In this document: in pieces, positions 2,684 to 24,000 of the stretch
Numbering within the stretch: the first letter of the stretch is position 1
Layout of the letters: the number at the start of each line of letters is the position of its first letter
DNA from: an uncultured Geobacter sp.
GTDB taxonomy: Bacteria > Desulfobacterota > Desulfuromonadia > Geobacterales > DSM-12255
Assembly: GCA_937860145.1 (NCBI GenBank)
Contig: CALMBF010000155.1
Coordinates: forward strand, 123,719 to 147,718
Length of the DNA stretch: 24,000 bases
Reading direction: 5' to 3'
Made by a program: the position numbers and the translations under genes
Notes under the pieces: model-generated
What the model saw: the letters and a program-made list of their open reading frames with translations, nothing else
What the model was told of the DNA's origin: nothing
The model's database searches: none

Positions 2684-4024
2684 TTATCGGCCCGGGATCG
2701 CGAACGACATCAGATCTTCCGCCAGGCTGAGGCCCCCACGATAACCGGCATACCCTTTGTTCATCACCACGCGGTTGTTGAGCGGAAAGCTGATCCCCAG
2801 GTGGCGGGCGCCGATGTTGGCGGCCAGTTCCCCTTCGATGGTGCTTCCCAGGATATAGGCCGGGCTAAAGATAGGCGCGTAGCGGTTGCCATCGGTAGCC
2901 GGCCAAAGTCTGGCCAGGTGGGCCGGGATCTGCCCCGCATCGGTTTCGAAGATGATCGTCGGCTGATAGCCGGACTCCAGGCGGTCGTAGCCGTCTATAA
3001 CCGCTGCGTGAAACTGTTCGTCCAGTCCGTCGCTCACCACCGCCAGATCGGTCAGCCAGCCCAGCTCTTCATTGAGAAAGCGGGTTATGGGGAGGGTTGT
3101 GGTGGCATTCCCCACCACCGCGGCATAGAACTGCATGTCTACATCGGTGAACAGGTCGCTCGAGCGTTCGAAGATGCGGTAGTAGAGATCATTTTCCCTG
3201 GCGATGACTGCTTCGGTGGCTTGCGGGTCAAGCCCAAGGGCGGCAGTCACCTCCCGCAGGAAACGGGCGGTGGCCACTGCCCCCACCGGCAGATCCACGA
3301 CTTTGAACGGGGTGGCGAAGCGTTCCTCGAACGTTCTGGCCGGGTCCACGCCATAAGCACGGGATACGACCAGATTGGCCGCTGCCGCCGGTGCACTCCG
3401 CAGGTTGTCCAAGGTTTCGTCCGGGGCGAATAAGGTGTTGACCTCCAGCCCCAGAAGCCCCAGCAGGCGCTTCAGCTCAAGCAGATCACCACGGAAAAAC
3501 GGGTCCTGACCCGGTACCAGTCCCCAGAGGTTGACGAGGCGGGTGTTTATCTCCGCTGCTGGCTTGAGGTAGTGGCGGAAGAGCCCGTCCAGCAGGAGAT
3601 CATACCCCTTGTAGGAGTTCCCCTTGAAACCGCCGGTCTCGATGCCGATCACCGGTATGCCGTTGTCCCGGTGCTCCTGGACCACCGACTGAATGTCATC
3701 GCCGATGATGTCGGTCATGCAGGCCGACACCACCACGTAGAGCTCGCCGTCCATCAGCTCATGGGTGGTGCGGATCTGCTCGCTCAAGCGGTCGCTGCCA
3801 CCGAACACCACCTCATTCTCGACGATGTTGGAGCCGGGGAGCGACGTGCCGCCGCAGTAGCCGGCCCCGTAAAAGCCGCTGCCGGCATAATGGGCCATGT
3901 GCAGGTTGCCGCCGCAGCCGCCGGAGCCATGAATGATCGGGATGGCTTTCGGCAGTGAGGTGATGGCGCTGAGCGCCCCTCCCAGGGCGCAGGTGAAGCG
4001 GGGGTGATCGATAGGGGTACTCAT
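2684..4024 (-). CDS. Nitrogenase-like component 1 beta-type subunit (NifK/NifN-like), paralog beta3, 446 aa
   Basis: Motifs FTCALGGAL, IIHGSGGCGG and SACMTDIIGDD match the three NifK P-cluster cysteine contexts. GGAGGA RBS before the ATG at 4024. Close paralog of 19075..20412. Confidence 0.9.
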   Translation of the reverse strand: MSTPIDHPRFTCALGGALSAITSLPKAIPIIHGSGGCGGNLHMAHYAGSGFYGAGYCGGTSLPGSNIVENEVVFGGSDRLSEQIRTTHELMDGELYVVVSACMTDIIGDDIQSVVQEHRDNGIPVIGIETGGFKGNSYKGYDLLLDGLFRHYLKPAAEINTRLVNLWGLVPGQDPFFRGDLLELKRLLGLLGLEVNTLFAPDETLDNLRSAPAAAANLVVSRAYGVDPARTFEERFATPFKVVDLPVGAVATARFLREVTAALGLDPQATEAVIARENDLYYRIFERSSDLFTDVDMQFYAAVVGNATTTLPITRFLNEELGWLTDLAVVSDGLDEQFHAAVIDGYDRLESGYQPTIIFETDAGQIPAHLARLWPATDGNRYAPIFSPAYILGSTIEGELAANIGARHLGISFPLNNRVVMNKGYAGYRGGLSLAEDLMSFAIPGR

Positions 4025-4051: not shown

Positions 4052-4723
4052 TTAGTGAATTGCGCCAAAATCTGTTTCCAGTAGCACCATTCCCGGTGCA
4101 ATCTCGATAAACGAATCGCCGTCCCACGGGCCGTTGACGACCCGCCGCAACCATGCGTCGCGGCCGCCTATGGTCAGGAATTCCAGCCCCAGCAGCCCAG
4201 CCAGTTCGCGGCCGGTTGCCAGGTGCGCTGTTTCCCTGGGATGGCCGGTATGAACGAAAACAATGCGCCGGTAGGCATCGAACATGGTGGCCATCACCCG
4301 TTTTGCCTTCTGCTCGCCATATTTTTCCCGTACGCGCCGGTATTCGGAAAATACGGTCCGCTCCCCCTCCAGCCAGCCGCCGGAGAGGAAATAAGTCCCC
4401 TTTTCCTCACGGAGGAGTTCTTCATGGGTGTACCGGGACCCAAGGAGGAGCGGGATGCAGTCGTGGGCTCTCGGAATGAACAGCGGTATCCCTGGCGCAG
4501 TCAGTCCTGCCACCGCCCCGCCGCAGAGGCCGAAAGCCAGCACCACCCGGTCTCTACCAGTGGCGCTGGCAAGAACCGCGCGTAACTCCTCCCGCAGTTT
4601 GTCCGGCCAGCGGTGCAGCCCCATGGAGACAAAGTGGAAGATGACCGGGTGTGTCGGCGTTATTGCCAGAAGTTCTTCCTTCATGACGTCGCAGGCAATG
4701 ATGTGGGTAGGTGCGTCAGGCAT
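4052..4723 (-). CDS. DUF1638 domain protein, 223 aa
   Basis: The pattern IIACDVMKEEL...GLH..P..L...FGLCGG...AHDC...LGS...FLSGGW is typical of DUF1638. It lies 27 nt upstream of beta3 on the same strand. Confidence 0.7.
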   Translation of the reverse strand: MPDAPTHIIACDVMKEELLAITPTHPVIFHFVSMGLHRWPDKLREELRAVLASATGRDRVVLAFGLCGGAVAGLTAPGIPLFIPRAHDCIPLLLGSRYTHEELLREEKGTYFLSGGWLEGERTVFSEYRRVREKYGEQKAKRVMATMFDAYRRIVFVHTGHPRETAHLATGRELAGLLGLEFLTIGGRDAWLRRVVNGPWDGDSFIEIAPGMVLLETDFGAIH

Positions 4724-4874: not shown

Positions 4875-6056
4875 TCAGGCCAGCCTTGCAGCCCGGTCGA
4901 TGCGCTCCCAGGGGAGATCCAGGTCGTTCCTGCCGAAGTGGCCGTAGGCGGCGGTCTGGCGGTAGATGGGGCGGCGCAGGTCGAGCTGCTCGATGATGGC
5001 CGCCGGGCGGAGGTCAAAATTATCCCTGATGATCAGGGCGAGCTGTTCGTCCGACACCTTGCCGGTGCAGAATGAGTCGACGAACACCGCCACCGGCCGG
5101 GCCACGCCGATGGCGTAGGCGATCTGGATCTCAACCCGCGACGCCAGTCCGGCGGCAACCAGGTTCTTGGCCACGTAGCGGGCGGCATAGGCACCGGAGC
5201 GGTCCACCTTCGTGGGATCCTTGCCCGAGAAGGCACCGCCGCCGTGTCGGGCCACGCCGCCGTAGCTGTCGACGATGATCTTGCGGCCGGTGAGGCCGGC
5301 GTCGCCGTGGGGGCCGCCGACGACGAAGCGACCGGTGGGGTTGATGAAGAAACGGGTCTGGTTGTCCAACAGGTTCGCCGGGATCACCGGCTTGACGATA
5401 CGCTCGATGACGTCGCCGCGGATCTGCTCCAGCTCCACGTCGGGAGCGTGCTGGGTGGAGATGACCACCGTGTCGATCCGTGTCGGCGTGCCGTTTTCGA
5501 ACTGCACCGTCACCTGGCTCTTGCCGTCGGGGCGGAGGTAGCCGATTTCCCCTGATTTTCTGGCCGAGGCCAGCTTGCGGGTCAGGCCGTGGGCCAGGTG
5601 GATGCTGGTGGGGAGGTAGGCATCGGTCTCGTCGGTGGCGTAGCCGAAGACCATTCCCTGGTCACCGGCGCCGACGGAATCGAGATAGCCGTCATGGTCA
5701 ATGCCGGAGCGCTGCTCCAGGGCCGAGTTGACCCCTTGGGCGATATCGGGCGACTGCTGGTCAAGGGAAACCAGGACGGCACTGTGTTCGGCATCGAGCC
5801 CCAGTTCCGAGTTTGTGTAACCGACTTCAGTTATTGCGTCCCGGGCGACGCGAACGGCGTTGATCTGGGCAGTGGCCGAGGTCTCGCCGATGACGACGAC
5901 CAGGCCGGTGGTGACGCTGGTTTCGCAGGCGACGCGGGCAAGGGGATCTTTGTCGAGAAAAGCGTCGAGGATCGAGTCGGAGATGAAATCCGCCAGTTTG
6001 TCCGGGTGCCCTTCGGTGACCGATTCTGAAGTGAAGAGGTAGTTATGTGCCGGCAT
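4875..6056 (-). CDS. metK: S-adenosylmethionine synthetase, 393 aa
   Basis: [23 protein letters not shown]..., GAGDQG and the [11 protein letters not shown] motif. Start set at the ATG at 6056 with an AAGGAG RBS; the longer track ORF to 6347 covers the leader region. Confidence 0.95.
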
Positions 6057-6107
6057 TGCTGCTCCTTTCTGGTGATACCTTGAGTCGCATCCATGGTCTA
6101 TTCGCAT

Positions 6108-8082: not shown

Positions 8083-8194
8083 CGGGAGCTGGTACGATGA
8101 TCGTTCATCGTTAATCCGGTGGTTGAGCGGTGGCGGAGGAGGCACGTCATGCGAACGGAGTCACCGCTCAACTACCGACTGTGGAGAATCGTTC

Positions 8195-9016
8195 GTGATA
8201 CAACTTGATCTGGACACCCGGCTCCTGGCCGAAAATTATGACGAGCTGAGCGACTACCAGTTCGACAATGGTCGACGTCTACTGGAACTGCTCGATATCC
8301 GGCCCAACTCACGGGTCCTCGACATCGGCTGCGGTACGGGCCGTCTCGGGCTCCTGGTCGCGGAGTCCCTTGGTGACGACGGAAGGCTCATCGGCATTGA
8401 CCCTCTGCCCGAGCGGATCAGGATCGCCTGCAGCAAGAAGGCCCCGGCCAATGCGCGCTTTCAGGTCGGGGTGGGTGAGGACCTCGGTTTTCTCGACTGC
8501 GAGAGCATTGATGTCGTCTTTCTGAGTGCGGTATTCCACTGGATTGCCAACAAGGAGAAAGCGCTGCGGGAAATAGCCCGGGTGCTCAAGCCGGGGGGAC
8601 GGATCGGCCTTACCACGGGAGCCAGGGAGTTGGCCCGGGAAGCAACGTACCGCAAGATTACGGATCGGGTTCTGCTTCGCCTACCGTACAACAAGGTAGT
8701 CAATATCGAGGATTATGTCTTTACCCGGCACGGCGTTACCGCAACCCAGCTGGTACAGCACTTCCTCGGCGCCAAGCTGGCCGTGCAGAGCGTCGACATC
8801 CGCAAGCGATGCAAGTATTTCCGCAGCGGGATGGAGATTGTCGATTTTCTTGAATCGAGCACCTTCGGCAACTATCTGCAGCATGTGCCCGGCAACTTGC
8901 GGGAGGATGCCCGACGTGAGATCATTCTCGAGTTCGATAGCCTGAAGGCCGGTGGCCAGGTCGAGTTTACCGGGTTCACCATCTTTGCCGTGGCGGAGAA
9001 GCCGCTGGTGGATTGA
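8195..9016 (+). CDS. Class I SAM-dependent methyltransferase, paralog 1, 273 aa
   Basis: GTG at 8195 after GGAGAA. Motif I is VLDIGCGTGRLG. It aligns end to end (roughly half the residues identical by eye) with 16353..17171. The upstream part of the track ORF (from 8123) is unsupported. Confidence 0.8.
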   Translation: MIQLDLDTRLLAENYDELSDYQFDNGRRLLELLDIRPNSRVLDIGCGTGRLGLLVAESLGDDGRLIGIDPLPERIRIACSKKAPANARFQVGVGEDLGFLDCESIDVVFLSAVFHWIANKEKALREIARVLKPGGRIGLTTGARELAREATYRKITDRVLLRLPYNKVVNIEDYVFTRHGVTATQLVQHFLGAKLAVQSVDIRKRCKYFRSGMEIVDFLESSTFGNYLQHVPGNLREDARREIILEFDSLKAGGQVEFTGFTIFAVAEKPLVD

Positions 9017-10658: not shown

Positions 10659-12857
10659 GTGCATCCAGTGTATCTTGACTACAATGCAACTACTCCGGTT
10701 GACCCCCTGGTGGTTGATGAGCTGCTCCCCTGGTTGCAGGAAGGGTTCGGCAATCCATCCAGTAATCACCCGTACGGCCAGCGTGCCAAACATGCAGTGG
10801 AGCAGGCTCGTTCGCGGGTGGCGTCACTGCTTGGCGCGCATCCGGCGGAGATTATATTTACCAGCGGTGGTACCGAGGCAAACAATCAGGCGCTGATCGG
10901 GGTTGCCCTGGCCAACTGCGAGCGGGGTCGGCATATCATCACGTCGTCCATTGAACACCCGGCAGTCCTGAATCCGCTCCACTGGCTGGAGGGGCAGGGG
11001 TTCAACATCACCTATCTCCCCGTGGACAGCTCCGGACGGGTAGATCCGGAGACGTTGCGCCAGGCCATCACCTGCGAGACAATTCTCGTCAGCGTGATGC
11101 ATGCCAACAACGAGGTGGGGACTATCCAGCCGCTGGCCGAGATCGGCGCCATCGCCCGGGAACACGGCATTCTGCTGCACACCGATGCCGCCCAGTCGGT
11201 GGGGAAGATCCCGACGAGGGTGGATGAACTGGGGGTGGACCTGCTGACCATTGCCGGCCACAAGTTTTATGCCCCCAAGGGGATCGGCGCCCTCTATGTG
11301 CGCACGGGGGTGAAGATTGATCCCTACCTGCATGGCGCCGGACACGAAGGGGGCCGTCGGGCGGGGACCGAAAACGTCCCCTATATCGCCGCACTGGGTA
11401 AGGCGGCAGAACTGGCGGGCCAGCGGTTGGCCAGCGAAGGGGAGCGCATTCGTGAGCTGCGGGACCGCTTCCATGCCCGGCTGAACGAACTGGTTGACGG
11501 GGTCCTGCTGAATGGCCACCCCACCGAGCGCCTCCCCAACACTCTCAACATCAGCTTCAGCGACGTGGTCGGGGCTGATCTGCTGTCCCGTATTCCGGAG
11601 ATGGCCGCTTCCACCGGTTCGGCCTGTCATGACGGCAGCGGCGAGCTGTCCGGCGTGCTCAAGGCCATGGGGGTGCCACGGGAGCAGGGTTTCGGCGCCA
11701 TCCGCTTCAGCCTCGGCCGGCTTACCACCGCCGAGGAGCTGGAACGGGCAGCAGAGCTTGTTGCGACCAGGGTCAGGGAAATTCGCGCCATCCGGGGTGG
11801 TGTTTCCCATAATCACGTTCAGACCGGGCTCTCCGCCCTGGCTTCCTGCGCCGGTTGAGCGGCCAAGATAAGTCCTCAGGACCTGGCTCAAGTTTTGAGT
11901 CAGCTACCAAGCATTACCGACCCGAATGTACTCATCGGCACCAAAACCGCCGATGATGCCGCCGTTTACCGTGTGAACGATGATCTGGCCATCGTGCAGA
12001 CGGTGGACTACTTTACTCCGGTGGTGGACGACCCCTATCTGTTCGGCCAGATTACCGCTGCCAACTCCCTGTCCGATATCTATGCCATGGGGGCTACGCC
12101 TCTCTTTGCTCTGAACATAGCCGGGTTTCCATCCGATACGCTTCCCTTGGATGTTCTGGCCAGGATTCTCCAGGGGGGTGCTGACAAGGCGGCGGAAGCA
12201 GGCATCAGCATCATCGGCGGCCATACCATCAAGGATGCGGAGCCGAAATACGGCATGGCGGTCACCGCGGTGATCCATCCCGACCAGGTGATCAGTAACG
12301 CCGGGGCCAAACCGGGTGACCGGCTGATCCTCACCAAGCCGCTGGGAATCGGGATTATTACGACTGCCATGAAAAGCGGCAAGGTTACAGAAAAGACCGT
12401 TGCCGAAGTTGTCGCTGTCATGGCGAGTCTGAACAGGAGTGCCGCAGAGGCGATGGTTGTGGTCGGAGCCCATGCCTGCACCGACGTGACCGGTTTCGGA
12501 TTCCTCGGCCATCTTTCCGAAATGGTCCGTGGAAGCGGCGTCGGCGCGGTGATCAGCGTGTCGAGGGTGCCGGTGCTGGAAGAGGCCTGGAGTCTGGTGC
12601 GTGAGGGGATTGCTCCGGGCGGCAGCCGACGCAACCTGGAATTTTTGCGCGACCGGCTCACGGTAGAAACGGGTGTCAGCGAAGAGGAGCTGCTTGTCCT
12701 GGCCGATGCCCAGACCTCTGGCGGGTTGCTGATAGCATTGCCGGCAGACGACGTTGACCGGTTAGAGACGGAACTTGCCGGACGGGGTGTGACAGATGTT
12801 GCCGAAATCGGCGAGATTGTGGCCGATCCCGACAGCCGGATCACCCTGAGACCCTAG
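10659..12857 (+). CDS. selD: NifS-like cysteine desulfurase/selenocysteine lyase fused to selenophosphate synthetase; in-frame UGA (Sec) at 11856-11858; 732 aa
   Basis: GTG after AAGGAGG. The N-terminal domain has the PLP Lys context GHKFYAPKG and the active-site motif GSAC. Reading through the TGA gives ...SCAG-U-AAKISPQDLAQVL..., matching the SelD G-x-G-C/U-x-x-K-I-S-P active site. The rest is SelD-like (DDAAVY, VDYFTP, TDVTGFG). Confidence 0.8.
11859..11899 (+). other. Candidate SECIS-like stem-loop immediately 3' of the UGA
   Basis: GCCAagataaGTCCtcaGGACcTGGC at 11862-11887, followed by CTCAAgttTTGAG at 11887-11899. Confidence 0.4.
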
Positions 12858-14352: not shown

Positions 14353-15816
14353 ATGGGCAATCGTAACCTGTTACGTGATCCGATCTGGCGAGGCGATGAA
14401 CTGGGAAAGGCACTTCCCGATTCGCTCCATGCCGTCTCCGTGGCGCTGCCGCATTGGCAGGACGTGGTTGGTTATGAGGAGAAGCGGCCCGAGGTGGTCA
14501 ATCGATTGCAATGCGGCTACCCCCGCTTCGTCATTCACCGCCTGGTGCAGGATCTGGCGCGGTTTATCGCCGGTGATCGCCCCTGCCTGCCGTTCCCTTC
14601 GCAGCACACGGCGCAGCAGTGCGTGGCTTTCATTCATCGCCAGAGCGGCGTCGAAGCTCAGGTGGTCGAGCGGGACGGGCAGTATGGTGTTGCCACGACC
14701 GACAGCGGTTACGACAGCCTCAAGGCTTTCTGGCAGCATACCGGCCTGATCGTCTCCACCCGCCGGGCCCAGTCGATATTGAGCGGTATCTCGCGGGTAC
14801 AATCTGATGATCGGGAAGTGCGGGATTCTCTTCGGCGACAGCTGGCCGGGTTGTACGACTGTTCTCCCGATGACGTATTCCTGCAGCCAACCGGCATGGC
14901 GGCCATGTTTGCCGCCCTGCGGGCGGTCATGCGGCGTACACCGGGCAGGCCGACGGTGCAGATCGGCTTCCCTTATGTGGATACGCTCAAGCTGCAGGAG
15001 AAATTCGGCCACGGCGCAACCCTGCTCCATGACCTCAACCATTGTACTGAAAACCTGCGTGCCCTTCTGCAACAAGGGGCTCTAGCCGGATGCTTCAGTG
15101 AGATTCCCGGTAACCCCTTGCTCGGATCTGCCGATCTGCGCGAGATCACCCCGATCCTGCGGGAGCACGGCGTGCCGCTGGTGGCCGACGACGTTGTTGC
15201 CACACCCCTGAACGTGGACCTCGGTTCCCATGCCGACCTGATCGCCACCAGCCTGACCAAATACATTTTCGGCAGGGGGGACGTCATGGGTGGCGCCCTG
15301 ATCTGCAACCCCCGCTCTCCCTATCACATCGAGCTTAGGGCCATTGCAACATCGCTGCACGAGGAGCTTCTCTGGCTTGATGATGCCGTGGTGCTGGAAG
15401 AGCAGATCGGCAGCTTTCCGGAGCGGATGCGGGTTCACAACCGTAACGGCCTGATCATTGCCGAACGGCTTCGCTCCCATCCTGCAGTTGAACAGGTCTG
15501 GTTTCCGAAATGGTCGTTCGGCGACGCCTACGAGGCGGTGCGCCGACCCGATGGCGGGTGGGGTTCCCTGGTCACCTTTCTGCCAAAGAACGCCGAGACC
15601 GCGTCACCCCGTATCTATGACAATCTTGAAGTTTGCAAGGGCCCGAGTCTGGGAACCAGCTTTACCCTGGCCTGTCCCTTTACCCTGCTGGCCCATTACA
15701 CTGAACTGGAGTGGGCTGAGGCCTGCGGGGTGCCGCGGTATCTGATCCGGCTCTCCGTGGGGCTCGAAGATCCGGAAGAACTCTGGGGCCGGATTGTCCG
15801 GGCGCTGGAAGCATAA
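14353..15816 (+). CDS. Cys/Met-metabolism PLP-dependent enzyme (cystathionine gamma-synthase-like, long Str2-type form), 487 aa
   Basis: The PLP-lysine context SLTKYIFGRGDVMGG, plus an N-terminal extension of roughly 100 aa with HAVSVALPHWQDVVGYEE. AGGAGG RBS. Confidence 0.75.
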   Translation: MGNRNLLRDPIWRGDELGKALPDSLHAVSVALPHWQDVVGYEEKRPEVVNRLQCGYPRFVIHRLVQDLARFIAGDRPCLPFPSQHTAQQCVAFIHRQSGVEAQVVERDGQYGVATTDSGYDSLKAFWQHTGLIVSTRRAQSILSGISRVQSDDREVRDSLRRQLAGLYDCSPDDVFLQPTGMAAMFAALRAVMRRTPGRPTVQIGFPYVDTLKLQEKFGHGATLLHDLNHCTENLRALLQQGALAGCFSEIPGNPLLGSADLREITPILREHGVPLVADDVVATPLNVDLGSHADLIATSLTKYIFGRGDVMGGALICNPRSPYHIELRAIATSLHEELLWLDDAVVLEEQIGSFPERMRVHNRNGLIIAERLRSHPAVEQVWFPKWSFGDAYEAVRRPDGGWGSLVTFLPKNAETASPRIYDNLEVCKGPSLGTSFTLACPFTLLAHYTELEWAEACGVPRYLIRLSVGLEDPEELWGRIVRALEA

Positions 15817-15955: not shown

Positions 15956-16000
15956 GCTGACCAGATAACTGGAGGCCAGGATTTTTCCTGGCCTTTTTTT
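15956..16000 (+). promoter_or_regulatory. Leader motif copy C (GCTGA-CCAGataaCTGG-A-GGCCAGG...CCTGGCC-T7)
   Basis: It lies about 45 nt downstream of the predicted transcription start and about 115 nt upstream of the Nfu start, in a leader-terminator arrangement. Confidence 0.65.
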
Positions 16001-16114: not shown

Positions 16115-16336
16115 ATGACTGCAGAGGTTGAAACTGTTCTGGATCTTGTCCGGCCAGCGTTACTGGCGGACGGGGGAAATGTGGAGCTGGTGGAGATTAC
16201 CGAGGATGGTTTTGTGAAGGTGCAGCTGACTGGAGCCTGTGGCCACTGTCCCATGTCGGCACAGACGCTTAAGTTAGGTGTTGAACGGACCCTGAAGAGC
16301 AAGCTCCCCTGGGTAAAAGGAGTGCTGTCAATTTAG
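16115..16336 (+). CDS. Nfu/NifU C-terminal-domain Fe-S cluster carrier protein, 73 aa
   Basis: ATG at 16115 after [24 protein letters not shown]...GACGHCPMS is the NifU C-terminal CxxC signature. Confidence 0.85.
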
Positions 16337-16352
16337 TTTTCCGGAGATAACG

Positions 16353-17171
16353 ATGATATCCCTTGCGCTTGATAACAGTAAACTCGCCAAAACCTACGAC
16401 GAAATCAGCGATTCCCAGTACGAGTCCGGCAAGAAGCTGCTTGCCGAACTCAAAGTCAAACCGGGTGAGACCGTGCTCGACATCGGCTGCGGCACCGGTC
16501 GGCTCGGACTCTACCTGCTCGATATTATCGGTCCGACCGGCCGTTTCATCGGCATCGATCCGCTGCCGGAGCGTATCAGTATTGCCAATGACAATAATGT
16601 TCACCCTAACGCCGAATTCCGTACCGGTGTGGCTGAAGACCTCTCGTTTCTGGGGAACAACAGCGTCGACCTGGTCTACCTGAGCGCCGTGTTCCACTGG
16701 GTACCCGATAAGCAGAAGGCATTGCAGGAGATCAGCCGGGTGTTGAAGCCGGGTGGCAGGATCGGTTTGACCACCAACGCCAAGGAGTTGGTTAAGGCGA
16801 CCACCCTCCGTTCCGTGACCACGGAGGTGTTATCTCGGGTTCCCTATCGCGGCCAAGTGGATGCCGAGGCTTTTGCCCCGACCCGCCACGGGGTGACAGC
16901 CACCCAGCTGGTTGAGCTCTTTCTCGATGCGGGATTCAGGGTTGCGGACGTCCGTGTCCTGGCCATCGAGCGTTTGTACCATACCGGACGTGATATCGTC
17001 GACTTTGCCGAAGCAAGTACCTTTGGCAATTACCTGAACCACGTGCCGGCAGATTTGCGGGATAAAGCCCGTTTTGACCTGGAGAGCGCCTTTGAGATAC
17101 TGCGTGGTGACGAGGGGATTCCGTTTCAGCTATATACACTTTTTGCCATTGCCGAAAAGATCGGCGCCTGA
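16353..17171 (+). CDS. Class I SAM-dependent methyltransferase, paralog 2, 272 aa
   Basis: Motif I is VLDIGCGTGRLG. Collinear with 8195..9016 (shared blocks LSAVFHW, VLKPGGRIGLTT, RHGVTATQLV, STFGNYL.HVP). Confidence 0.85.
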   Translation: MISLALDNSKLAKTYDEISDSQYESGKKLLAELKVKPGETVLDIGCGTGRLGLYLLDIIGPTGRFIGIDPLPERISIANDNNVHPNAEFRTGVAEDLSFLGNNSVDLVYLSAVFHWVPDKQKALQEISRVLKPGGRIGLTTNAKELVKATTLRSVTTEVLSRVPYRGQVDAEAFAPTRHGVTATQLVELFLDAGFRVADVRVLAIERLYHTGRDIVDFAEASTFGNYLNHVPADLRDKARFDLESAFEILRGDEGIPFQLYTLFAIAEKIGA

Positions 17172-17248
17172 CAGGGATGGATACATCTGGACTGCCTGGC
17201 TGATCTGATGATGGTCTGATGCGATAAAGTAATGGGTAATATTTTTGT

Positions 17249-17314
17249 GCTGACCGGCAAAGCCGGAGGTGCCTGATGCGCATGTGCGCATGGCCCTCCG
17301 GCTTTTCTTTTTTT
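17249..17314 (+). promoter_or_regulatory. Motif copy D (GCTGA-CCGGCaaaGCCGG-AGG) merged with a strong intrinsic terminator, between the methyltransferase and alpha1
   Basis: AAGCCGGAGG (17260-17269) pairs with CCTCCGGCTT (17295-17304), with an inner ATGCGCAtgTGCGCAT, followed by TTCTTTTTTT. The alpha1 RBS follows 20 nt later. Confidence 0.65.
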
Positions 17315-17345
17315 GCAACCGACAATAGAGGAGAGAGGTGTACGT

Positions 17346-18875
17346 ATGGGATTGAAAGAAGACCGGGTTGTCCCCGGCAGGGAAGACCGGGTAGCGGCCT
17401 GCATGGCCTATGGCGGCAGCGCCTGCAGTATCGGCGGCGAAAGCAAGGCATGTCTGAAGAACAGCGAGCGGGGTTTTTCCCAGGCCGGCATCTGCCAGCT
17501 ACTGCCGACCTTGGGGATGCTCCTGACCCTGCCGGATATTGCCGTGATCATCCATGGCGCCATCGGCTGCGGTTCTGCCGGGTTCGGTATGAATGTCAGT
17601 ATTCGCCTGCATCATCTGCTCCGCGGCAATCCCAATGCCAAGGACAGCCTATGGTTCAGTACCAACCTGGATGAGGCGGATGTGGTGCATGGCGGCGAAC
17701 AGCGGCTGGAGGAGACTATCCTCACTGTAAACGAACGCTACAAACCGAAATCCATCGTCGTGGTGCAGACCTGCACCCCGTCCATCATCGGCGATGATCT
17801 CGTGGGGGTGGTGGAAAAAGTCCGGCCGCTGGTGGAGGCCAACATACTCTATGCCCACTGCGAAGGGTTCAAGACCAAGGTCTGGGCCACCGGCTATGAC
17901 GTGGCTTTTCATGCCATGATTCACGGTTACATAGAAAAGGACAAGGAGGGGCCGCCGCCACGAAAAGCCCCCTGGCAACCGGGACAGCGGCCGACGGTCA
18001 ATGTCATCAACCTGGCCTCCGTCGGCAAGCCGGACGAGGAGGAGATCGAACGGCTCCTCAATGCCATCGGCATCGATGTGACCATCGGCCCCAACTTCGC
18101 CGACCGGGAAAAGGTGCGGCAGCTGACTCAGGCCGACCTGACGGTCAGCATCTGCCCGACCCATGACGACTACCTGGTCGATTACCTGCACACCGAGTAC
18201 GGCATCCCCTTCGTCCTGAAGGACATGCCGATCGGCCTGGAGAATACCCGCAACTGGTTGCTGGATATTGCGGGCAAATTCGGTCTGGAAAAGGAGGCGC
18301 TGGCCCTGATAGAGGCCGAGGAGGCCAGGGCGCGCACAGCGGTGGAGCGCTTCCTTCCCGTGCTGAAGGGGATCCGGGTATTTCTCTCCGCCGGTGAGTT
18401 CCGGGCGCTGGTTACCGGCGGGCTGTTCCAGGAGCTGGGGATGGAGATCGTCGGGGTACGCTCCTACCACCATGACGAGTTCGGCACCGATTTCTACGGC
18501 CGGCTGGTAAACGGTCAGCAGGGGAAGGACTTCCCGGTGGATATCGCCAATTTCCAGCCCTTCGAACTGGTCAATCTGTTGCAGCAGGTCAAGCCGGACC
18601 TCTTTGCCGGCCATATCTGGGACAACGCCTGGGCCGCCCGCCTCGGCTATCCCACCATCACCATCTTCCGCATCTTCGACTACTACGTCGGCTACCGCGG
18701 TTTCTATGAAGTGGCAAAAAAGGCGGCCCGCATCCTGCGCAACCATTCGTTCAATGCCAATCTGAGCAGAAACGTTACCGATGCCTACCGCCCGGAGTGG
18801 TATGAGCAGAACGCTTTCAAATACATCAAGTCAGGGCTGCCTGAGGGTCTGCAATCGGATACAGCTGCAGTGTAA
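17346..18875 (+). CDS. Nitrogenase-like alpha-type subunit (NifD/NifE-like), paralog alpha1, 509 aa
   Basis: ATG at 17346 after GGAGAGAGG. Motifs IHGAIGCGS, QTCTPSIIGDD, AHCEGFK and SICPTHDDY..EYGIP. Collinear with alpha3. Confidence 0.9.
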   Translation: MGLKEDRVVPGREDRVAACMAYGGSACSIGGESKACLKNSERGFSQAGICQLLPTLGMLLTLPDIAVIIHGAIGCGSAGFGMNVSIRLHHLLRGNPNAKDSLWFSTNLDEADVVHGGEQRLEETILTVNERYKPKSIVVVQTCTPSIIGDDLVGVVEKVRPLVEANILYAHCEGFKTKVWATGYDVAFHAMIHGYIEKDKEGPPPRKAPWQPGQRPTVNVINLASVGKPDEEEIERLLNAIGIDVTIGPNFADREKVRQLTQADLTVSICPTHDDYLVDYLHTEYGIPFVLKDMPIGLENTRNWLLDIAGKFGLEKEALALIEAEEARARTAVERFLPVLKGIRVFLSAGEFRALVTGGLFQELGMEIVGVRSYHHDEFGTDFYGRLVNGQQGKDFPVDIANFQPFELVNLLQQVKPDLFAGHIWDNAWAARLGYPTITIFRIFDYYVGYRGFYEVAKKAARILRNHSFNANLSRNVTDAYRPEWYEQNAFKYIKSGLPEGLQSDTAAV

Positions 18876-18909
18876 ATATACCTGATGACTATCAATTCTT
18901 CCGTAAATT

Positions 18910-19013
18910 CCTTCTCCCTCAGGGAGAAGGTGGCCTCAGGCCGGATGAGGGTGGTAACAGTGCCATTATGCACCATTTCCCCCTCACCCTAGCCCTCTCC
19001 CTCAGGGAGAGGG
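18910..19013. repeat. REP-like element: inverted pair of CCYTCTCCC-tca-GGGAGARGG hairpins in the alpha1-beta1 gap
   Basis: Hairpins at 18910-18930 and 18993-19013, plus GGCCtcaGGCC at 18932-18942. The two halves are approximately reverse-complementary. Confidence 0.65.
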
Positions 19014-19074
19014 GACTCTGTATAAGCTGTAGTGGCAGGTACGATTAAATTAATTACCAAGGAGTAACATCCAT

Positions 19075-20412
19075 ATGAGCACATTTATTGAACGCCCCCG
19101 CTACCAGTGCGCCCTCGGCGGCGCGCTGGTTACCATCAATGCCATTGAACGGGCAGTGGCAATTGTCCACGCTTCACCCGGGTGCGCTGCGGCTGCCGAT
19201 GGCGCCGCTGCCTTTGGCGGCGGCTACTGGGGGTCCACCGTCCACGACGGCCGGGCCACCCCGAGCAGTAACATCGTCGAGCGTGAAGTCATCTTCGGCG
19301 GTGAGGAGCGGCTTGCCGAGCAGATCAGCGCCACCCTCGATGTGGTCGACGCCGATCTCTACGCGGTCATCACCGGCTGCATGACCGACATCATCGGCGA
19401 CGATGTCCGCTCGGTGGTGAACGAGTTCCGCAGACAGGGGAAACCGGTCATAGTAGCCGAAACCGGCGGCTTCAAGGGAAACTCCACCGTCGGCTACGAA
19501 TTTCTCTGGGATGCACTGATCAACCAGTTCGTCTCAAAGGGGCTGCCGAAAAAAGACCGGCTGGTCAACATTTTCGGTGTGCTGCCGGTACAGGATGTTT
19601 TCTGGCGCGGCAACCTGCTCGAACTGAAAAGGCTGCTGTCAGCCATCGGCATCGAGGCCAACACCTTTGTTACCCCGTTCGATGACACCGCGTCGCTGAA
19701 AAACGCCTCCCAGGCGGCTCTTTCGATCGTCCTTTCCGATGTCCACGGTCAAAAGGCCGCCGCTCTTTTCGAGGAGGTACACGGGGTGCCGTATATCACC
19801 GAGTCCCTCCCGTTCGGCCCGACGGCGACGGAACGGTTCCTGCGCCGGATCGCAGAACTCTTCAACATCTCCTCGGCAAAGCTGAACCGGGTACTGAAGG
19901 AAGAGCGCCGGCACTATTACCAGTTCATCAATCCGCTGACCGATCTCTTTACCGACCAGGATTTCCAGCGTTTCGGCGTGGTCATCGGCAATGCCAATTA
20001 CGCTTACGCGGTGAGTCGCTTCATCGCCGACGATCTCGGCTGGATTCCCTATTTTGCGGCCATCACCGATATTCTGGATGAACAGCAGCAGGCAGCGGTA
20101 CTGGCGCGTTTTGCCACGATTCCCGAACAGGCGCGCCCCAAGGTCATTTTCGAGACCGACACCAGCCGGATCAGGGAGCGGCTGTTTGCCGAACTGGAAA
20201 AGGAGAATGATCCTTACGGGACCCCGATCAGTCCGGCATTCGTTATCGGCAGTAACCTCGACCGTCCTCTGGCTGCGGATCTGAAGGCCGGCTTCTGGGG
20301 CGTATCCTATCCGATTACCAACCGGGTTGTGACCGACCAGGGTTATCTCGGCTATCGTGGCGGCCTGCGCTTGGCGACCGAGGTTGTCAGCGCACTTGTT
20401 AGCAACCGATAA
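19075..20412 (+). CDS. Nitrogenase-like beta-type subunit (NifK/NifN-like), paralog beta1, 445 aa
   Basis: Motifs YQCALGGAL, IVHASPGCAA and TGCMTDIIGDD. AAGGAG RBS. Close paralog of beta3. Confidence 0.9.
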   Translation: MSTFIERPRYQCALGGALVTINAIERAVAIVHASPGCAAAADGAAAFGGGYWGSTVHDGRATPSSNIVEREVIFGGEERLAEQISATLDVVDADLYAVITGCMTDIIGDDVRSVVNEFRRQGKPVIVAETGGFKGNSTVGYEFLWDALINQFVSKGLPKKDRLVNIFGVLPVQDVFWRGNLLELKRLLSAIGIEANTFVTPFDDTASLKNASQAALSIVLSDVHGQKAAALFEEVHGVPYITESLPFGPTATERFLRRIAELFNISSAKLNRVLKEERRHYYQFINPLTDLFTDQDFQRFGVVIGNANYAYAVSRFIADDLGWIPYFAAITDILDEQQQAAVLARFATIPEQARPKVIFETDTSRIRERLFAELEKENDPYGTPISPAFVIGSNLDRPLAADLKAGFWGVSYPITNRVVTDQGYLGYRGGLRLATEVVSALVSNR

Positions 20413-20424
20413 AGGAGAGCATGT

Positions 20425-21897
20425 ATGGCAATCAATCTAAATCTTTCCGAAGCACCGATCCGCGAGGCTCGTCTCGGGGCCATCACCGGCTATAACGGTA
20501 CCCTCAAGGATCTGGTCAGCCGTAGCGGTTGCGGTGCAACGATCAATAACTGCGAGCGGAGTTTCAGCCAGACCAGTTCCTGCAGCTCCGGCTGTGCCCA
20601 GACCCTTCTGGCAAACATTGTCGATGCGGCAATTGTCAATCACGCTCCCATCGGCTGTGCCGGCGACACCATTTATCACAACATCGCCAACCATTACGGC
20701 CGCTTCTACCGTGGGCAGGATAACCGCAACATCCAGTTGATCAACACCAATATCGAAGAGTCGGACACGGTGTTCGGCGGTGCTGAAAAGCTGCGGGCCG
20801 GGATTCTGGAGGCATGGCGACGTTTCAAGCCGAAGGCGATTTTCGTCAGCACCTCCTGTGCCTCGGGGATTATCGGGGACGATATCAAGGGGGTTATCAG
20901 CGACCTGGGGGAAGAGGTCCCGATTCCGGTCATTCCGGTCTCCTGTGAAGGGTTTCGCAGCAAGGTCTGGGCCTCCGGATTCGATGCCGCCTTTCATGCG
21001 GTTCTGACCGGTATCGTCAAGCCTCCCCGGCGGTCACAGCCGAACCTGGTGAACATGGTCAACTTCCGTGGCAGTGCCCGGGAGTATATCACCCGACTGT
21101 TCGGCAGACTCGGCCTTGAGCCGCGCTTTATTCTCCCCTTTGCCTCGGTGGAGGAGCTGGAAACCATCTCCGAGGCGGCGGTGACCGCCACGGTCTGCAC
21201 CACCCTTGGCAGTTATATCGGCACGGCTCTGGAAGAGCAGTACGGCGTTCCCTATGTGAAAACCATTCCGCCCCACGGTGTTGCCGGTATCGAGGCCTGG
21301 CTGCGCGGCATCGCAGCTGCTGTCGGCAAGCAGGGTGAGGTGGAGGAGCTGATCGCCGAAGAGCGTGCCGCCACTGTCGACGATCTTGCCGAGATCCGTC
21401 GCCGCCTGGACGGAAAGACTGCCGTATTGGGGATGGGGCCCAGTTATGCCCAGTCTTACCTCGGGGTGCTGGAAGAGCTGGGGATAACGGTTCTGCACGC
21501 TGCCAGCTGGCACTATGACCAGCGTTATGACTATGGCGAGCAGCCGCCGGCCATTTTGCGCGCTGCCGGCCGGGAAGAGGACGTCACCTTCAGCGTCGGT
21601 GACCAGCAGCTGTTCGAGATCGGCAACAAGCTCTCCAGGGTCAAGCCCGATCTCTATTTCTCCCGTCACCCCGGCAGTTCGGTCTGGGGCGCCAAGCTGG
21701 GGATAACCGCTGTCCCGGTTATCGATGAGTACACCGCTTTCGGTCATCGTGGCCTTGTGAACTTCGGCTATCGGATCATCGATGCCCTGACCAACCGGCA
21801 CTTTGTCACCAAACTGGCGGAGCGGGTAACACTCCCCTACACGACCTGGTGGTTCGAACAGGACCCCTATTCATTTCTTGAGCAGGAGGTAATCTGA
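20425..21897 (+). CDS. Nitrogenase-like alpha-type subunit, divergent paralog alpha2, 490 aa
   Basis: Motifs NHAPIGCAGD, STSCASGIIGDD, VSCEGFRSKVWASGFDAAFHA and TVCTTLGSY..QYGVP. AAGGAGAG RBS 12 nt after the beta1 stop. Confidence 0.9.
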   Translation: MAINLNLSEAPIREARLGAITGYNGTLKDLVSRSGCGATINNCERSFSQTSSCSSGCAQTLLANIVDAAIVNHAPIGCAGDTIYHNIANHYGRFYRGQDNRNIQLINTNIEESDTVFGGAEKLRAGILEAWRRFKPKAIFVSTSCASGIIGDDIKGVISDLGEEVPIPVIPVSCEGFRSKVWASGFDAAFHAVLTGIVKPPRRSQPNLVNMVNFRGSAREYITRLFGRLGLEPRFILPFASVEELETISEAAVTATVCTTLGSYIGTALEEQYGVPYVKTIPPHGVAGIEAWLRGIAAAVGKQGEVEELIAEERAATVDDLAEIRRRLDGKTAVLGMGPSYAQSYLGVLEELGITVLHAASWHYDQRYDYGEQPPAILRAAGREEDVTFSVGDQQLFEIGNKLSRVKPDLYFSRHPGSSVWGAKLGITAVPVIDEYTAFGHRGLVNFGYRIIDALTNRHFVTKLAERVTLPYTTWWFEQDPYSFLEQEVI

Positions 21898-23213
21898 TGG
21901 CAGGACCGATAGAACAGATACGAAACGTCTGCGCCCTGGGCGCACTGCAGTCGGTGGTGGCGATTCAGCGGGCAATCCCCATAATCCATGCCGGCCCGGG
22001 GTGCGGACAGAAACTATGGAGCGGACTCTCCAACGGCAACGGTTTCCAGGGGGCGAGTTATGTCGGGGGTCATGCGGTTCCCTGCAGCAATGCTACGGAA
22101 AAGGAGGTGGTTTTCGGCGGCGAGGACAAGCTTCGGGAAACGGTGGAAAACACTCTCAAGGTCATGGATGGCGACCTCTTTGTGGTGTTGACCGGCTGCA
22201 CCTCCGACATCGTCGGCGATGATGTGGGGGAGGTGGTGCGCAGCTTCAAAAACAAAGGGACGCCAATCGTCTACGTGGAAACCGGTGGCTTCAAGGGTGA
22301 CAACTACTTTGGCCATGAACTGCTCTGGGAGGCGATTATCGAGCAGTTTCTGGAAAAATCAGACAGGATGGAGCAGGGGCTGGTGAATGTCTGGAGTGTC
22401 ATCCCCTATCAGGACCCCTACTGGACCGGTACCTTGCATGCCATTGCCGACCTGCTCCGCTCCATCGGGCTCAAGCCGAACATCATCTATGGACCGGGGG
22501 AAGGGGTCGCTTCGGTGCGCAAGATCCCGTCAGCCCAGTTTAACCTGCTCATCTCTCCTTGGGCCGGCCTGAAAACGGTCAAGCGACTGGAAGAGAAGTT
22601 CGGTACACCCTTTTTCCATTACCCGGCGCTCCCCATTGGTGCCACCGAGAGCGGCTCCTTCCTGCGGTCAGTCGGCAGCTTTGCCGGCATCCCGGTATCA
22701 CGGGTGGAGGAGACCATCAAACGGGAGGAGGAGCGTTACTATTATTACGTGGAGCGGTCAGCCGATCTGCTCTTCGAGACCCGCTTCCTCCCCGGCCATT
22801 TCGTTACCATTGCCGACAGCTTCTATTCCCTGGGCCTGACACGCTTCCTGATCAATGATCTGGGGCTGATTCCCGAAGTGCAGTTCGTTACCGAAGCCGT
22901 GCCTGAAGAGTTCCGGCCGCTGGTGGAGACGGAGTTCGCCAGGTTCGATGAAGGCCTGGTGTCGCCGGTGCACTACGGCGCCGATGGAGCAACGGTGCGT
23001 GACGAACTGGCGAAACACAAATTCCGCGAACGGCCACTCATTCTCGGCAGCAGCTGGGACCGGGTAATAGCCCGGGAACTGAAAGGGTATCCGTTGTCGG
23101 TCGCCATGCCGGTCAGCGACCGGCTGGTGCTGAGCCGCACCTATGCTGGCTATGACGGGGCGCTTCGGTTGACGGAGGATATCTACTCCGTGATCCTGGG
23201 CAGCTTCCAGTAG
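21897..23213 (+). CDS. Nitrogenase-like beta-type subunit, divergent paralog beta2, 438 aa
   Basis: Motifs NVCALGAL, IIHAGPGCGQ and TGCTSDIVGDD. The start overlaps the alpha2 stop (cTGATGg). Confidence 0.9.
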   Translation: MAGPIEQIRNVCALGALQSVVAIQRAIPIIHAGPGCGQKLWSGLSNGNGFQGASYVGGHAVPCSNATEKEVVFGGEDKLRETVENTLKVMDGDLFVVLTGCTSDIVGDDVGEVVRSFKNKGTPIVYVETGGFKGDNYFGHELLWEAIIEQFLEKSDRMEQGLVNVWSVIPYQDPYWTGTLHAIADLLRSIGLKPNIIYGPGEGVASVRKIPSAQFNLLISPWAGLKTVKRLEEKFGTPFFHYPALPIGATESGSFLRSVGSFAGIPVSRVEETIKREEERYYYYVERSADLLFETRFLPGHFVTIADSFYSLGLTRFLINDLGLIPEVQFVTEAVPEEFRPLVETEFARFDEGLVSPVHYGADGATVRDELAKHKFRERPLILGSSWDRVIARELKGYPLSVAMPVSDRLVLSRTYAGYDGALRLTEDIYSVILGSFQ

Positions 23214-23354: not shown

Positions 23355-24000
23355 TTGTCGATAAGCGAAACAGAGAGCTACCAGCAGGCAAACCGGGCAC
23401 TGATCAGCCTGCTCTCCATCAACCTGCTGGCCGGGGTGGCGACCGGCATGCTGCAGATGACGATCCCGCTCTATGCCCTGTCACTCAAGGCAACCACCCT
23501 GCAGTTGGGCCTGATCGCCGGCGCCGTCGGCATCGGCATCGGCAGGCTGCTGGTGGTCATCCCGTCGGGAGTGCTCATCGACCGGTACGGGGCGCGCAGT
23601 CTCTTTGTCGCAAGCACCCTGGTCACGGCCATAGCCACTCTGGTACTCCTGTCAACAACCTCGACACTGACGCTGCTGGGGGTCCTGACCATACAGAGCA
23701 TGGGCCAGGCGATAGGATTTCTGGCCCTGCAGGCCGGATTCCTCAAGCGGCTCCCCTATCTCGGCAAAGCAAGGGCAGGGTGGCAGCGTGGCGCCACCCA
23801 GATCGGTTTCTATCTGATCGGTCCGGTGCTGTGCGGCATGCTGCTGCAGGAGAGTCGCTACGGGGTGGTTTTCGTCTCCGTCGGCGCCATCTTCTTCACG
23901 GAACTGGTAATTTCCTGGTATCGCCGCGTTTGCGGCGCCCGGGAGGTGCAGGATAGTCCCCATCGGTCCGAATCCGGTCAATTGGCGCGGTTCAGGGTGC
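23355..24000 (+). CDS. MFS transporter (3' end outside window); not in the supplied ORF track
   Basis: The frame is open from 23352 to the window end. My hand translation gives ...ALISLLSINLLAGVATGMLQMTIPLYALSL...GVLIDRYGARSLF... (MFS motif A between TM2 and TM3). The TTG start at 23355 is tentative. Confidence 0.65.
   Translation, partial: MSISETESYQQANRALISLLSINLLAGVATGMLQMTIPLYALSLKATTLQLGLIAGAVGIGIGRLLVVIPSGVLIDRYGARSLFVASTLVTAIATLVLLSTTSTLTLLGVLTIQSMGQAIGFLALQAGFLKRLPYLGKARAGWQRGATQIGFYLIGPVLCGMLLQESRYGVVFVSVGAIFFTELVISWYRRVCGAREVQDSPHRSESGQLARFRV

Follow-up and report, generated by a model that had tools for sequence, protein, structure and literature searches.

The window analysed here, a stretch of 24,000 nucleotides (nt) from an uncultured Geobacter sp. 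(assembly GCA_937860145.1, contig CALMBF010000155.1, positions 123,719 to 147,718 of the forward strand), contains six genes with the PF00148 domain (nitrogenase component 1), to which the labels α and β refer in the following. Four of them follow each other on the plus strand between 17346 and 23213 and had been pointed out in an earlier note, made from the letters alone, as two NifD/E-like and two NifK/N-like genes. The Pfam matches bear this out, and with E-values of 1e-61 to 1e-78 for the window proteins chance is no issue. About 21 kb beyond the window was taken from a matching Joint Genome Institute (JGI) metagenome contig of 106,750 bp, 3300025144 Ga0209725_1000015, giving a total of about 45 kb examined. 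In the following L001 denotes the right-hand flank locus on that contig and L002 the locus to the left of the window, and other L numbers are related loci. The right-hand locus of the JGI contig is identical to the window across the 12.1 kb compared. Near position 5124 metK is intact in the window, and the copy in the JGI contig has an indel and is called as two fragments (340 and 72 amino acids, aa); to judge from this indel, the two would be different assemblies of one organism. The PF00148 genes are:

17346-18875, plus strand: α1, NflD/MarD-like, 509 aa (PF00148, E=8.6e-76); the start agrees with the JGI gene call.
19075-20412, plus strand: β1, NflK/MarK-like partner of α1, 445 aa (PF00148, E=3.5e-67).
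20425-21897, plus strand: α2, 490 aa (PF00148; 371 bits to MarD, 9FMG_A).
21897-23213, plus strand: β2, partner of α2, 438 aa, its start overlapping the α2 stop (434 bits to MarK, 9D9U_C).
2684-4024, minus strand: β3, 446 aa (PF00148, E=2.3e-62), transcribed ahead of α3 and thus in K-then-D order.
918-2459, minus strand: α3, 513 aa, with an AAAGGAG ribosome-binding site before the ATG at 2459 and an exact product on record.
L001 19520-21317, minus strand: the fourth pair, α4β4, about 7.5-9.3 kb beyond the window end on the same contig.

A longer open reading frame (ORF) of 534 aa for α3 was dropped, since it has no recorded product, whereas the 513-aa start supported by the ribosome-binding site has one. 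The earlier note had counted three pairs, which holds for the window, but with α4β4 beyond its end the locus has four. The note had also placed the first plus-strand pair nearer to the minus-strand pair than to its downstream neighbour, and this is correct: α1 is 42% identical to α3 and 31% to α2, and β1 is 43% identical to β3 and 35% to β2.

The best PDB match of all six window proteins is MarDK, the methylthio-alkane reductase of Rhodospirillum rubrum, with 9FMG_A/9D9U_A for every α and 9D9U_C for every β, in agreement with the suggestion in the earlier note that MarBHDK is the closest described analogue. Entry 9FMG is the R. rubrum MarDK2H2 complex. The scores to MarD are 193, 371 and 214 bits for α1, α2 and α3, and those to MarK are 273, 434 and 272 bits for β1, β2 and β3, while in the same search the scores of nitrogenase α chains do not exceed 110 bits with α1 or α3 and about 150 bits with α2, and no Nif/Vnf/Anf chain scores above 150 bits with any of the six. 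By BLASTP α2 and β2 are 41 and 47% identical to R. rubrum MarD and MarK, and the other pairs show 30-31% (α) and 35% (β), with 31% for α1 and 35% for β1. None of the six proteins reaches an NCBIfam cut-off for NifD/K/E/N, Vnf, Anf, BchN/B/Y/Z or CfbD, the best score being 178 bits against cut-offs of 268-1229. This best score is to the Nif/Vnf/Anf equivalogs (cut-offs 486-874), and the scores to the BchN/B/Y/Z and CfbD equivalogs are all 104 bits or less against cut-offs of 268-912. The proteins thus fall outside the NifDK, NifEN, DPOR/COR and CfbD families, membership of which the earlier note had named as the outcome that would speak against it. By their sequences all pairs are assigned to the Group IV nitrogen-fixation-like (NFL) family, Mar lineage, nearest to MarDK.

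In an alignment with MarD the P-cluster cysteine columns (MarD Cys66/91/158) are kept in α1, α2, α3 and the α4-type proteins. The same is true of Cys270 and the Loop-I histidine His429, which correspond to C270/H423 in α1, C258/H415 in α2 and C272/H423 in α3 and are also present in the α4-type proteins; in MarD, His429 in Loop I holds the [Fe8S9C] cluster. Among 18 α1 orthologs with 64-81% identity from Geobacterales, Firmicutes and Armatimonadota, Cys50/75/143, Cys270 and His423 of α1 are invariant. On the β side all three columns of RrMarK Cys32/56/121 are kept in β1-β4, the three conserved cysteines of β1 being Cys12/37/102. Every α and β therefore has a full set of Cys/His ligands, and all pairs look catalytic, i.e. 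of the DK type. The residues around the cofactor are less uniform. An arginine next to the histidine, Arg428 in MarD, has been proposed as a Mar hallmark (PMC12552129). The Arg-His of MarD Loop I is found in α2 only, and α1, α3 and the α4-type proteins have Gly-His together with a one-residue deletion. Ten active-site and channel positions of R. rubrum MarD were also compared (M70, C73, Y98, I101, H194, W195, S196, F199, F374 and H375). Here α2 reads C/T/H/A/V/W/A/F/W/H, and α1 and α3 diverge further, α3 having a serine in place of Trp195. A protein from a Firmicutes metagenome-assembled genome (MAG; L029) matches MarD at all ten positions, and true Mar orthologs can therefore be recognised; α2 is not among them.

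A neighbour-joining tree (481 columns, 100 bootstraps), rooted on NifD 9HBC, VnfD 5N6Y and 9P1X, places all Mar-like sequences in one clade (100%) apart from these three. Within it, and with no Group IV-A, IV-D, IV-E or IV-F references included, Clade A (99%) consists of R. rubrum MarD and a sister subclade (100%) that holds α2 together with Geobacterales, heliobacterial, Clostridium and Paenibacillus proteins. Clade B (100%) is made up of the α1 subclade (100%), the α3 subclade with K-D order (50%) and the α4 subclade (67-99%), and the β tree has the same shape as the α tree. From these trees and the residues above, α2β2 is placed nearest to true MarDK with another substrate channel, and α1β1 and α3β3 are placed in the sister clade. 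On a first reading, from the PDB bit scores, α2β2 was taken for the MarDK ortholog; this was dropped in view of the 41/47% identity and the other channel residues, and because the pair maps to NflDK3 of Heliophilum fasciatum and not to NflDK5, the Heliophilum pair grouped with MarDK in PMC9147875. The numbering of the Heliophilum pairs is based on a gene order that fits the figure legend published there, and the counterparts are:

α2β2: NflDK3 of Heliophilum fasciatum, 56/53% identity.
α3β3: NflDK2 of Heliophilum fasciatum, 52/51% identity, with the K-D order in common and likewise an adjoining URO-D gene.
β4: NflK4 of Heliophilum fasciatum, 63% identity.

No counterpart of α1β1 is found in the Heliophilum fasciatum locus, and by sequence this pair is a separate clade with a lineage of its own. 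The roles of NflDK2-4 are unknown according to PMC9147875, which also describes several nifDK-like copies per genome as nothing unusual where Group IV enzymes are present.

The distribution of the pairs was followed in a comparative scan with one genome per species, which gave 70 loci annotated against a local reference set. The nearest GTDB genome is the Geobacteraceae MAG SOY_65_metabat_437, with an α1 that is 93% identical, and among cultured relatives α1 is 81% identical in Geotalea sp. SG265 and Geomesophilobacter sediminis Red875. Orthologs of α1β1 (65-93%) are present in Geobacterales, in Sporomusa, Pelotomaculum, Desulfosporosinus and other Firmicutes, and in one Armatimonadota and one Myxococcales MAG. 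The α1β1α2β2 tandem is seen in four of the 16 genomes with at least 3 kb of downstream sequence, namely Geotalea sp. SG265, Geomesophilobacter sediminis, the closest MAG and a Clostridia MAG (three from the systematic count plus locus L023). In the other 12 α1β1 occurs without α2β2, and α2-type pairs stand alone in heliobacteria. Elsewhere α1β1 is directly followed by an MFS transporter gene, a glutaredoxin gene (Grx) and genes for proteins of 311 and 460 aa (unk311 and unk460), and this module is present in five of the six Geobacterales loci with enough sequence. The Grx-unk311-unk460 genes together with a PCYCGC-like gene lie after α1β1(α2β2) at L001 12879-16472, and also in L003, L013-L015 and L017. 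The region upstream of α1 is more variable: a gene for the iron-sulfur carrier Nfu is found there in two and a methyltransferase gene in four of the 15 loci with enough upstream sequence, and genes for NifS and SelD lie within 10 kb of α1 in three of nine other Geobacterales loci. None of the three (Nfu, methyltransferase, NifS+SelD) is found at the Firmicutes α1 loci examined, and the closest MAG has genes for a NiFe hydrogenase upstream of α1. The Nfu and methyltransferase genes and the selenium context, to which the earlier note had drawn attention, thus vary even among close relatives and are not supported as defining traits.

Neither a Fer4_NifH nor a radical-SAM gene is present in the window or among the called flank genes, as the earlier note had said of the vicinity. 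A missing local Fe protein does not characterise the clade as a whole, because in the Myxococcales MAG at L070 the α1 ortholog comes directly after a Fer4_NifH gene and a radical-SAM gene. The former has its best PDB match to MarH (9FMG_D, 407 bits, versus 252 bits for the best NifH), and the latter carries the NifB motif HLPVxPxCNIxCxFC. A gene with the NifB motif is also located near α1 in L016. Pairs of the α4 type commonly occur in NifX-MarH-DUF1847-ABC(NMT1)-DK clusters, and also in a second type of cluster that contains URO-D, RACo and a B12-binding protein and in many cases NifB. Two further JGI loci from other samples, found with the MarH-like protein of Geobacter sp. SVR as query, have the usual NifX-MarH-DUF1847-ABC-DK layout, and NifX-MarH-DUF1847 is present in Geobacter sp. 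SVR itself and in another Geobacterales contig (L079 1273-2281 and L006 579-1930). In view of this linkage to MarH and NifB in other genomes the whole family should therefore be a two-component, NifB-dependent system like Mar.

Apart from the three pairs, the window contains genes for MetK, a DUF1638 protein, two methyltransferases, an EamA protein, a nitroreductase, NifS, SelD, TauE, a chromate-transporter-like protein and a Cys/Met-metabolism enzyme dependent on pyridoxal phosphate (PLP). The earlier note had described the neighbours as concerned with S-adenosylmethionine (SAM), sulfur and selenium, which agrees with MetK, the methyltransferases, NifS, SelD, TauE and the PLP enzyme. The main ones are:

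4875-6059, minus strand: MetK (SAM synthetase), first in the string metK-DUF1638-β3-α3 (TIGR01034, E=2e-168); translation probably starts at Met97 of the long ORF.
4052-4723, minus strand: DUF1638 gene directly upstream of β3 (PF07796, E=4.6e-36).
8123-9016: methyltransferase MT_A, ArsM/UbiE-like, 53% identical to MT_B.
10659-12857, plus strand: NifS-SelD read-through fusion with an in-frame TGA (selenocysteine) at 11856-11858.
14353-15816, plus strand: Cys/Met-metabolism PLP enzyme (PF01053, E=1.4e-34).
16079 or 16115 to 16336, plus strand: Nfu/NifU-C-domain Fe-S carrier (PF01106, E=2.6e-25).
16353-17171, plus strand: methyltransferase MT_B, class-I SAM-dependent and ArsM/UbiE-like (matches to Methyltransf_11/25/31).
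23355-24000, plus strand: MFS transporter (PF07690), cut by the window end, the first conserved downstream gene.

Genetic evidence ties DUF1638 to methionine synthesis that depends on corrinoids (10.1101/192971). The NifS and SelD ORFs lie in a common frame and the TGA falls inside ...SCAG-U-AAKISP..., the active-site motif of SelD, so that the two look like one fusion selenoprotein of about 730 aa, not two genes. MT_A and MT_B are paralogs about 7 kb apart; neither passes a specific NCBIfam cut-off, and the PDB matches of MT_B are generic. To the right of the window follow, in order, the rest of the MFS gene, genes for glutaredoxin, the 311-aa and 460-aa proteins (both conserved, with no Pfam match), a PCYCGC-like protein, a NosL-domain protein, Rrf2 and DUF2292, and then α4β4. 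To the left are genes for a ThiI-like protein, a URO-D (MtaA-like) methyltransferase, a NifX-like protein (PF02579), a cupin, a flavodoxin-like protein, an ABC transporter and NosL. The URO-D and NifX-like genes lie just beyond α3 (L002 12788-14321), and this URO-D protein is 54% identical to the one adjoining the Heliophilum NflDK2.

The four plus-strand genes are closely packed, with 12 nt from β1 to α2 and an overlap between α2 and β2, and the longest gap is the α1-β1 spacer of 199 nt. Hairpins are located on both sides:

15971-15996: terminator-like hairpin 3' of the Cys/Met PLP gene.
17260-17314, plus strand: GC-rich 45-nt hairpin with a U-tract between MT_B and α1 (fold of 17230-17345, -45.4 kcal/mol, z=-3.3).

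A further strong hairpin follows 3' of β2. Because hairpins flank the block, and because of the 12-nt gap and the α2/β2 overlap, α1-β1-α2-β2 are probably a single transcription unit. According to its predicted fold the element at 17260-17314 looks like an intrinsic terminator or attenuator. The operon had been described in the earlier note as led by the Nfu and methyltransferase genes; both do lie upstream of α1, but the intervening hairpin and U-tract make their leading role doubtful, and the two may form a separate transcription unit.

Put together, the locus would be an organosulfur-assimilation island encoding several paralogous DK-type heterotetramers (α2β2 in the sense of subunit composition) of the Group IV NFL family, Mar lineage. 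We estimate the probability that these are paralogous ATP-dependent reductases that cleave C-S bonds for organosulfur assimilation at about 0.6. In such enzymes we infer two metal clusters: the α/β interface would house a P-cluster, and Cys270 and the Loop-I histidine of α would hold an [Fe8S9C] cofactor of the L-cluster type. Electrons would be supplied by a MarH-type ATP-dependent Fe protein encoded elsewhere in the genome. The cofactor should be built by a radical-SAM enzyme of the NifB/MarB type and could be delivered by the NifX-like carrier, whose gene lies shortly to the left of the window; in R. rubrum, NifB is able to take the place of MarB. Each pair would reductively cleave the C-S bond in a different small organosulfur substrate imported by the neighbouring transporters, and the channel residues, which differ between α1, α2 and α3, argue for different substrates. 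The methanethiol, sulfide or sulfite released might then pass to the Cys/Met PLP enzyme and MetK, so that the sulfur would enter methionine and SAM synthesis. An association of Group IV NFL genes with sulfur metabolism genes is described in a 2026 review.

Several observations weigh against this interpretation. All frames of the window and flanks (about 45 kb) are free of GKGGIGKS-type P-loops and of the NifB CxxxCxxC signature. MarH is missing from the NifX-DUF1847 position both of the closest MAG and of Geotalea sp. SG265 (L007 4139-5371 and L082 9644-11554), and the electron donor of the lineage in the window is therefore unlocated; its Fe protein gene was found neither within the 45 kb nor by the search with the Geobacter sp. 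SVR MarH-like protein. The MarD residues M70, C73, Y98, I101, H194, S196 and F374, which have been linked to substrate handling, are changed in every α, and Arg428 is absent from α1 and α3. The Rfam scan gave no SAM or other sulfur-sensing riboswitch, and the tree lacks the Group IV references mentioned above. Finally, NflDK3 of Rhodopseudomonas palustris, which is 52-56% identical to Mar1, was inactive on every volatile organosulfur compound tested (bioRxiv 10.64898/2026.08.20.746119), and activity can therefore not be assumed from homology.

The locus can be compared with five known systems. With R. rubrum MarBHDK (Group IV-C NFL; PDB 9FMG and 9D9U) it shares the six P-cluster cysteines, Cys270 and the Loop-I His429, in α2 also Arg428, and the genomic theme of sulfur assimilation. 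It differs in having several DK pairs where R. rubrum has a single one, in having no adjoining marH or marB within about 45 kb, whereas these are in the cluster there, and in its active-site and channel residues, true Mar orthologs (L029) being distinct from α2. The NflDK1-5 clusters of Heliophilum fasciatum and Heliomicrobium gestii (PMC9147875) likewise have several Group IV DK pairs together with sulfonate-type ABC transporters and URO-D, but they include their own nflH, a nifB-nifX fusion and the Nfa-like NflDK1, none of which is seen in the 45 kb here. Multiple Mar-like DK pairs in one genome are also known from R. palustris, with Mar1, Mar2 (marKD2 plus marHB2) and NflDK3 (bioRxiv 10.64898/2026.08.20.746119). 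As in the locus here, one of these pairs shows the K-D order, and nflDK3 comes without a dedicated H or B gene. Sulfur limitation induces all three loci, which are surrounded by genes of sulfur metabolism, and the substrates of Mar1 and Mar2 are different (same preprint). The R. palustris paralogs are 52-65% identical to Mar1 and have arisen inside the Mar clade, whereas α1, α3 and α4 belong to a much deeper sister clade with about 30% identity.

In the type 1 mlp clusters with MarHDK-like genes (Kountz & Balskus, 10.1101/2023.07.31.551370) the arrangement is exactly that of the α4-type pairs in URO-D/B12-binding/RACo/NifH/NifX clusters. Here URO-D and DUF1638 flank α3β3, but a corrinoid protein and RACo are not seen in the 45 kb, and α1β1α2β2 lies outside such a cluster. 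The isethionate reductase IsrBHDK (Group IV-F) likewise belongs to the NFL enzymes, serves sulfur assimilation by cleaving a C-S bond and is found with sulfonate/taurine transporters. According to a published review IsrDK does not have the conserved P- and L-cluster ligands and IsrB has a radical-SAM domain only; all pairs here keep the ligands and by this description are separate from Isr.

The enzyme family, clustered DK paralogs of which some lack an Fe protein of their own, and the link to sulfur and methyl-S/Se clusters are thus already known. The earlier note had left it undecided whether the clade had been characterised. Clustered Group IV NflDK pairs have indeed been published (PMC9147875; bioRxiv 10.64898/2026.08.20.746119), with function unknown, but as far as we have searched the literature the α1β1 clade is not described, nor are the tandem α1β1α2β2 unit in Geobacterales and the conserved Grx-unk311-unk460 module. 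This clade, found in Geobacterales, Firmicutes, Armatimonadota and Myxococcales, has no Arg428 and has channel residues of its own. It may conceivably represent a distinct catalytic class of L-cluster reductase, with a substrate that is neither a known Mar substrate nor isethionate, perhaps a methylated selenium or sulfonium compound from the neighbouring methyltransferases or NifS-SelD, and with electrons that perhaps do not come from a dedicated MarH, although we consider this rather doubtful.

A related possibility, which we regard as unlikely, is that α1β1 is a reductase of organoselenium compounds or methylated metalloids that works with the methyltransferases and NifS-SelD and cleaves C-Se bonds, the selenide being passed to SelD or the reaction serving detoxification. 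The NifS-SelD(Sec) fusion is encoded only 4.5 kb upstream, the two genes recur within 10 kb of α1 in the three Geobacterales loci mentioned above, the window contains two ArsM-like methyltransferases, and corrinoid methyltransferase clusters with MarHDK-like genes have been tied to methyl-Se/methyl-S metabolism (10.1101/2023.07.31.551370). In the same study, however, it is the non-selenium clade of mlp clusters with which MarHDK-like genes are associated. Moreover, the association with SelD and methyltransferases is missing at all Firmicutes α1 loci and in the closest MAG, SelD is needed for ordinary selenoprotein synthesis in any case, and the methyltransferases have no specific family assignment.

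The lack of an H or B gene in the 45 kb, together with the absence of MarH from its usual position in the closest relatives, could also be read as a sign of decay, with the pairs being orphan paralogs that are non-functional for want of a dedicated Fe protein. This is very unlikely, since none of the ORFs is interrupted, the 18 α1 orthologs show no change at the ligand residues, the genes are tightly spaced and the block is syntenic in four genomes.

The earlier note had likened the layout to a catalytic DK plus a scaffold-like EN, in which one pair would be the enzyme proper and its neighbour would act like NifEN, as scaffold or maturase in making the cofactor. The α-β-α-β layout does resemble nifDKEN, and α1 and α3 score marginally higher against NifE than against NifD models (160 versus 157 and 165 versus 161 bits), α2 the other way round. 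However, these 160-165 bits are far under the NifE cut-off of 505, as are the 29-42 bits to NifN under its cut-off of 327. Both α1 and α2 have Cys270 and the Loop-I histidine, and both β1 and β2 have all three P-cluster cysteines. NifN, as known from the NifEN structure, retains one of the three. The Mar cofactor is of the L-type without Mo or homocitrate, so no EN step is needed, and with α1β1 lacking α2β2 in 12 of 16 genomes and α2-type pairs alone in heliobacteria, such a division of labour is highly improbable and the analogy is largely refuted. Least credible is a redundant or alternative nitrogenase, i.e. an Nfa-like enzyme or extra nifDK/nifEN copies: the full P-cluster ligand set and the Cys/His cofactor ligands would allow it, and Group IV-A Nfa has the MarD-type histidine and may fix N2 weakly, but the scores are 3- to 10-fold under the NifD/K/E/N, Vnf and Anf equivalog cut-offs, the equivalents of NifD Gln191 and His195 are Trp/Ser and Phe/Tyr, nifH, nifB, nifV and PII genes are not found in the window and flanks, where the neighbours are sulfur-related, and MarDK does not reduce N2.

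Nitrogenase-type P- and L-clusters had for years been regarded as exclusive to nitrogen fixation, until Mar showed that they can also be used to cut C-S bonds. The function of the remaining Group IV NFL clades is named as a main open problem in the 2026 review, and with four NFL pairs in one Geobacteraceae island the locus is a candidate for finding new NFL substrates. Two isolates in culture, Geomesophilobacter sediminis Red875 and Geotalea sp. SG265, also have the α1β1α2β2 block and are possible experimental hosts. If each paralog does act on a different organosulfur compound, this would mean further anaerobic routes by which, in sediments and waterlogged soils, sulfur is cycled and methane, ethylene or other hydrocarbons are released.

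In Sporomusa sp. KB1 (L004 13757-20331) α1β1 lies among NMT1-type ABC transporter genes, followed by genes of the BcrAD_BadFG activase and HGD-D dehydratase families, which constitute another ATP-driven low-potential electron system. Two further elements of the window remain to be mentioned:

18908-19015, plus strand: long inverted repeat in the α1-β1 spacer (fold -63 kcal/mol, z=-4.3).
838-901: hairpin with U- and A-tracts where the α3 and ThiI-like genes converge.

The sequence CTCCCTCAGGGAG occurs twice in the spacer repeat, versus 0.04 expected, and the spacer of 199 nt compares with about 63 nt in Geotalea; the repeat is possibly an insertion of the repetitive extragenic palindromic (REP) type. 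The sole Rfam match, Thr_leader at 838-901, is below the gathering score and was rejected as the terminator hairpin after α3, and from its tracts and position the element is most simply taken as a putative bidirectional terminator.

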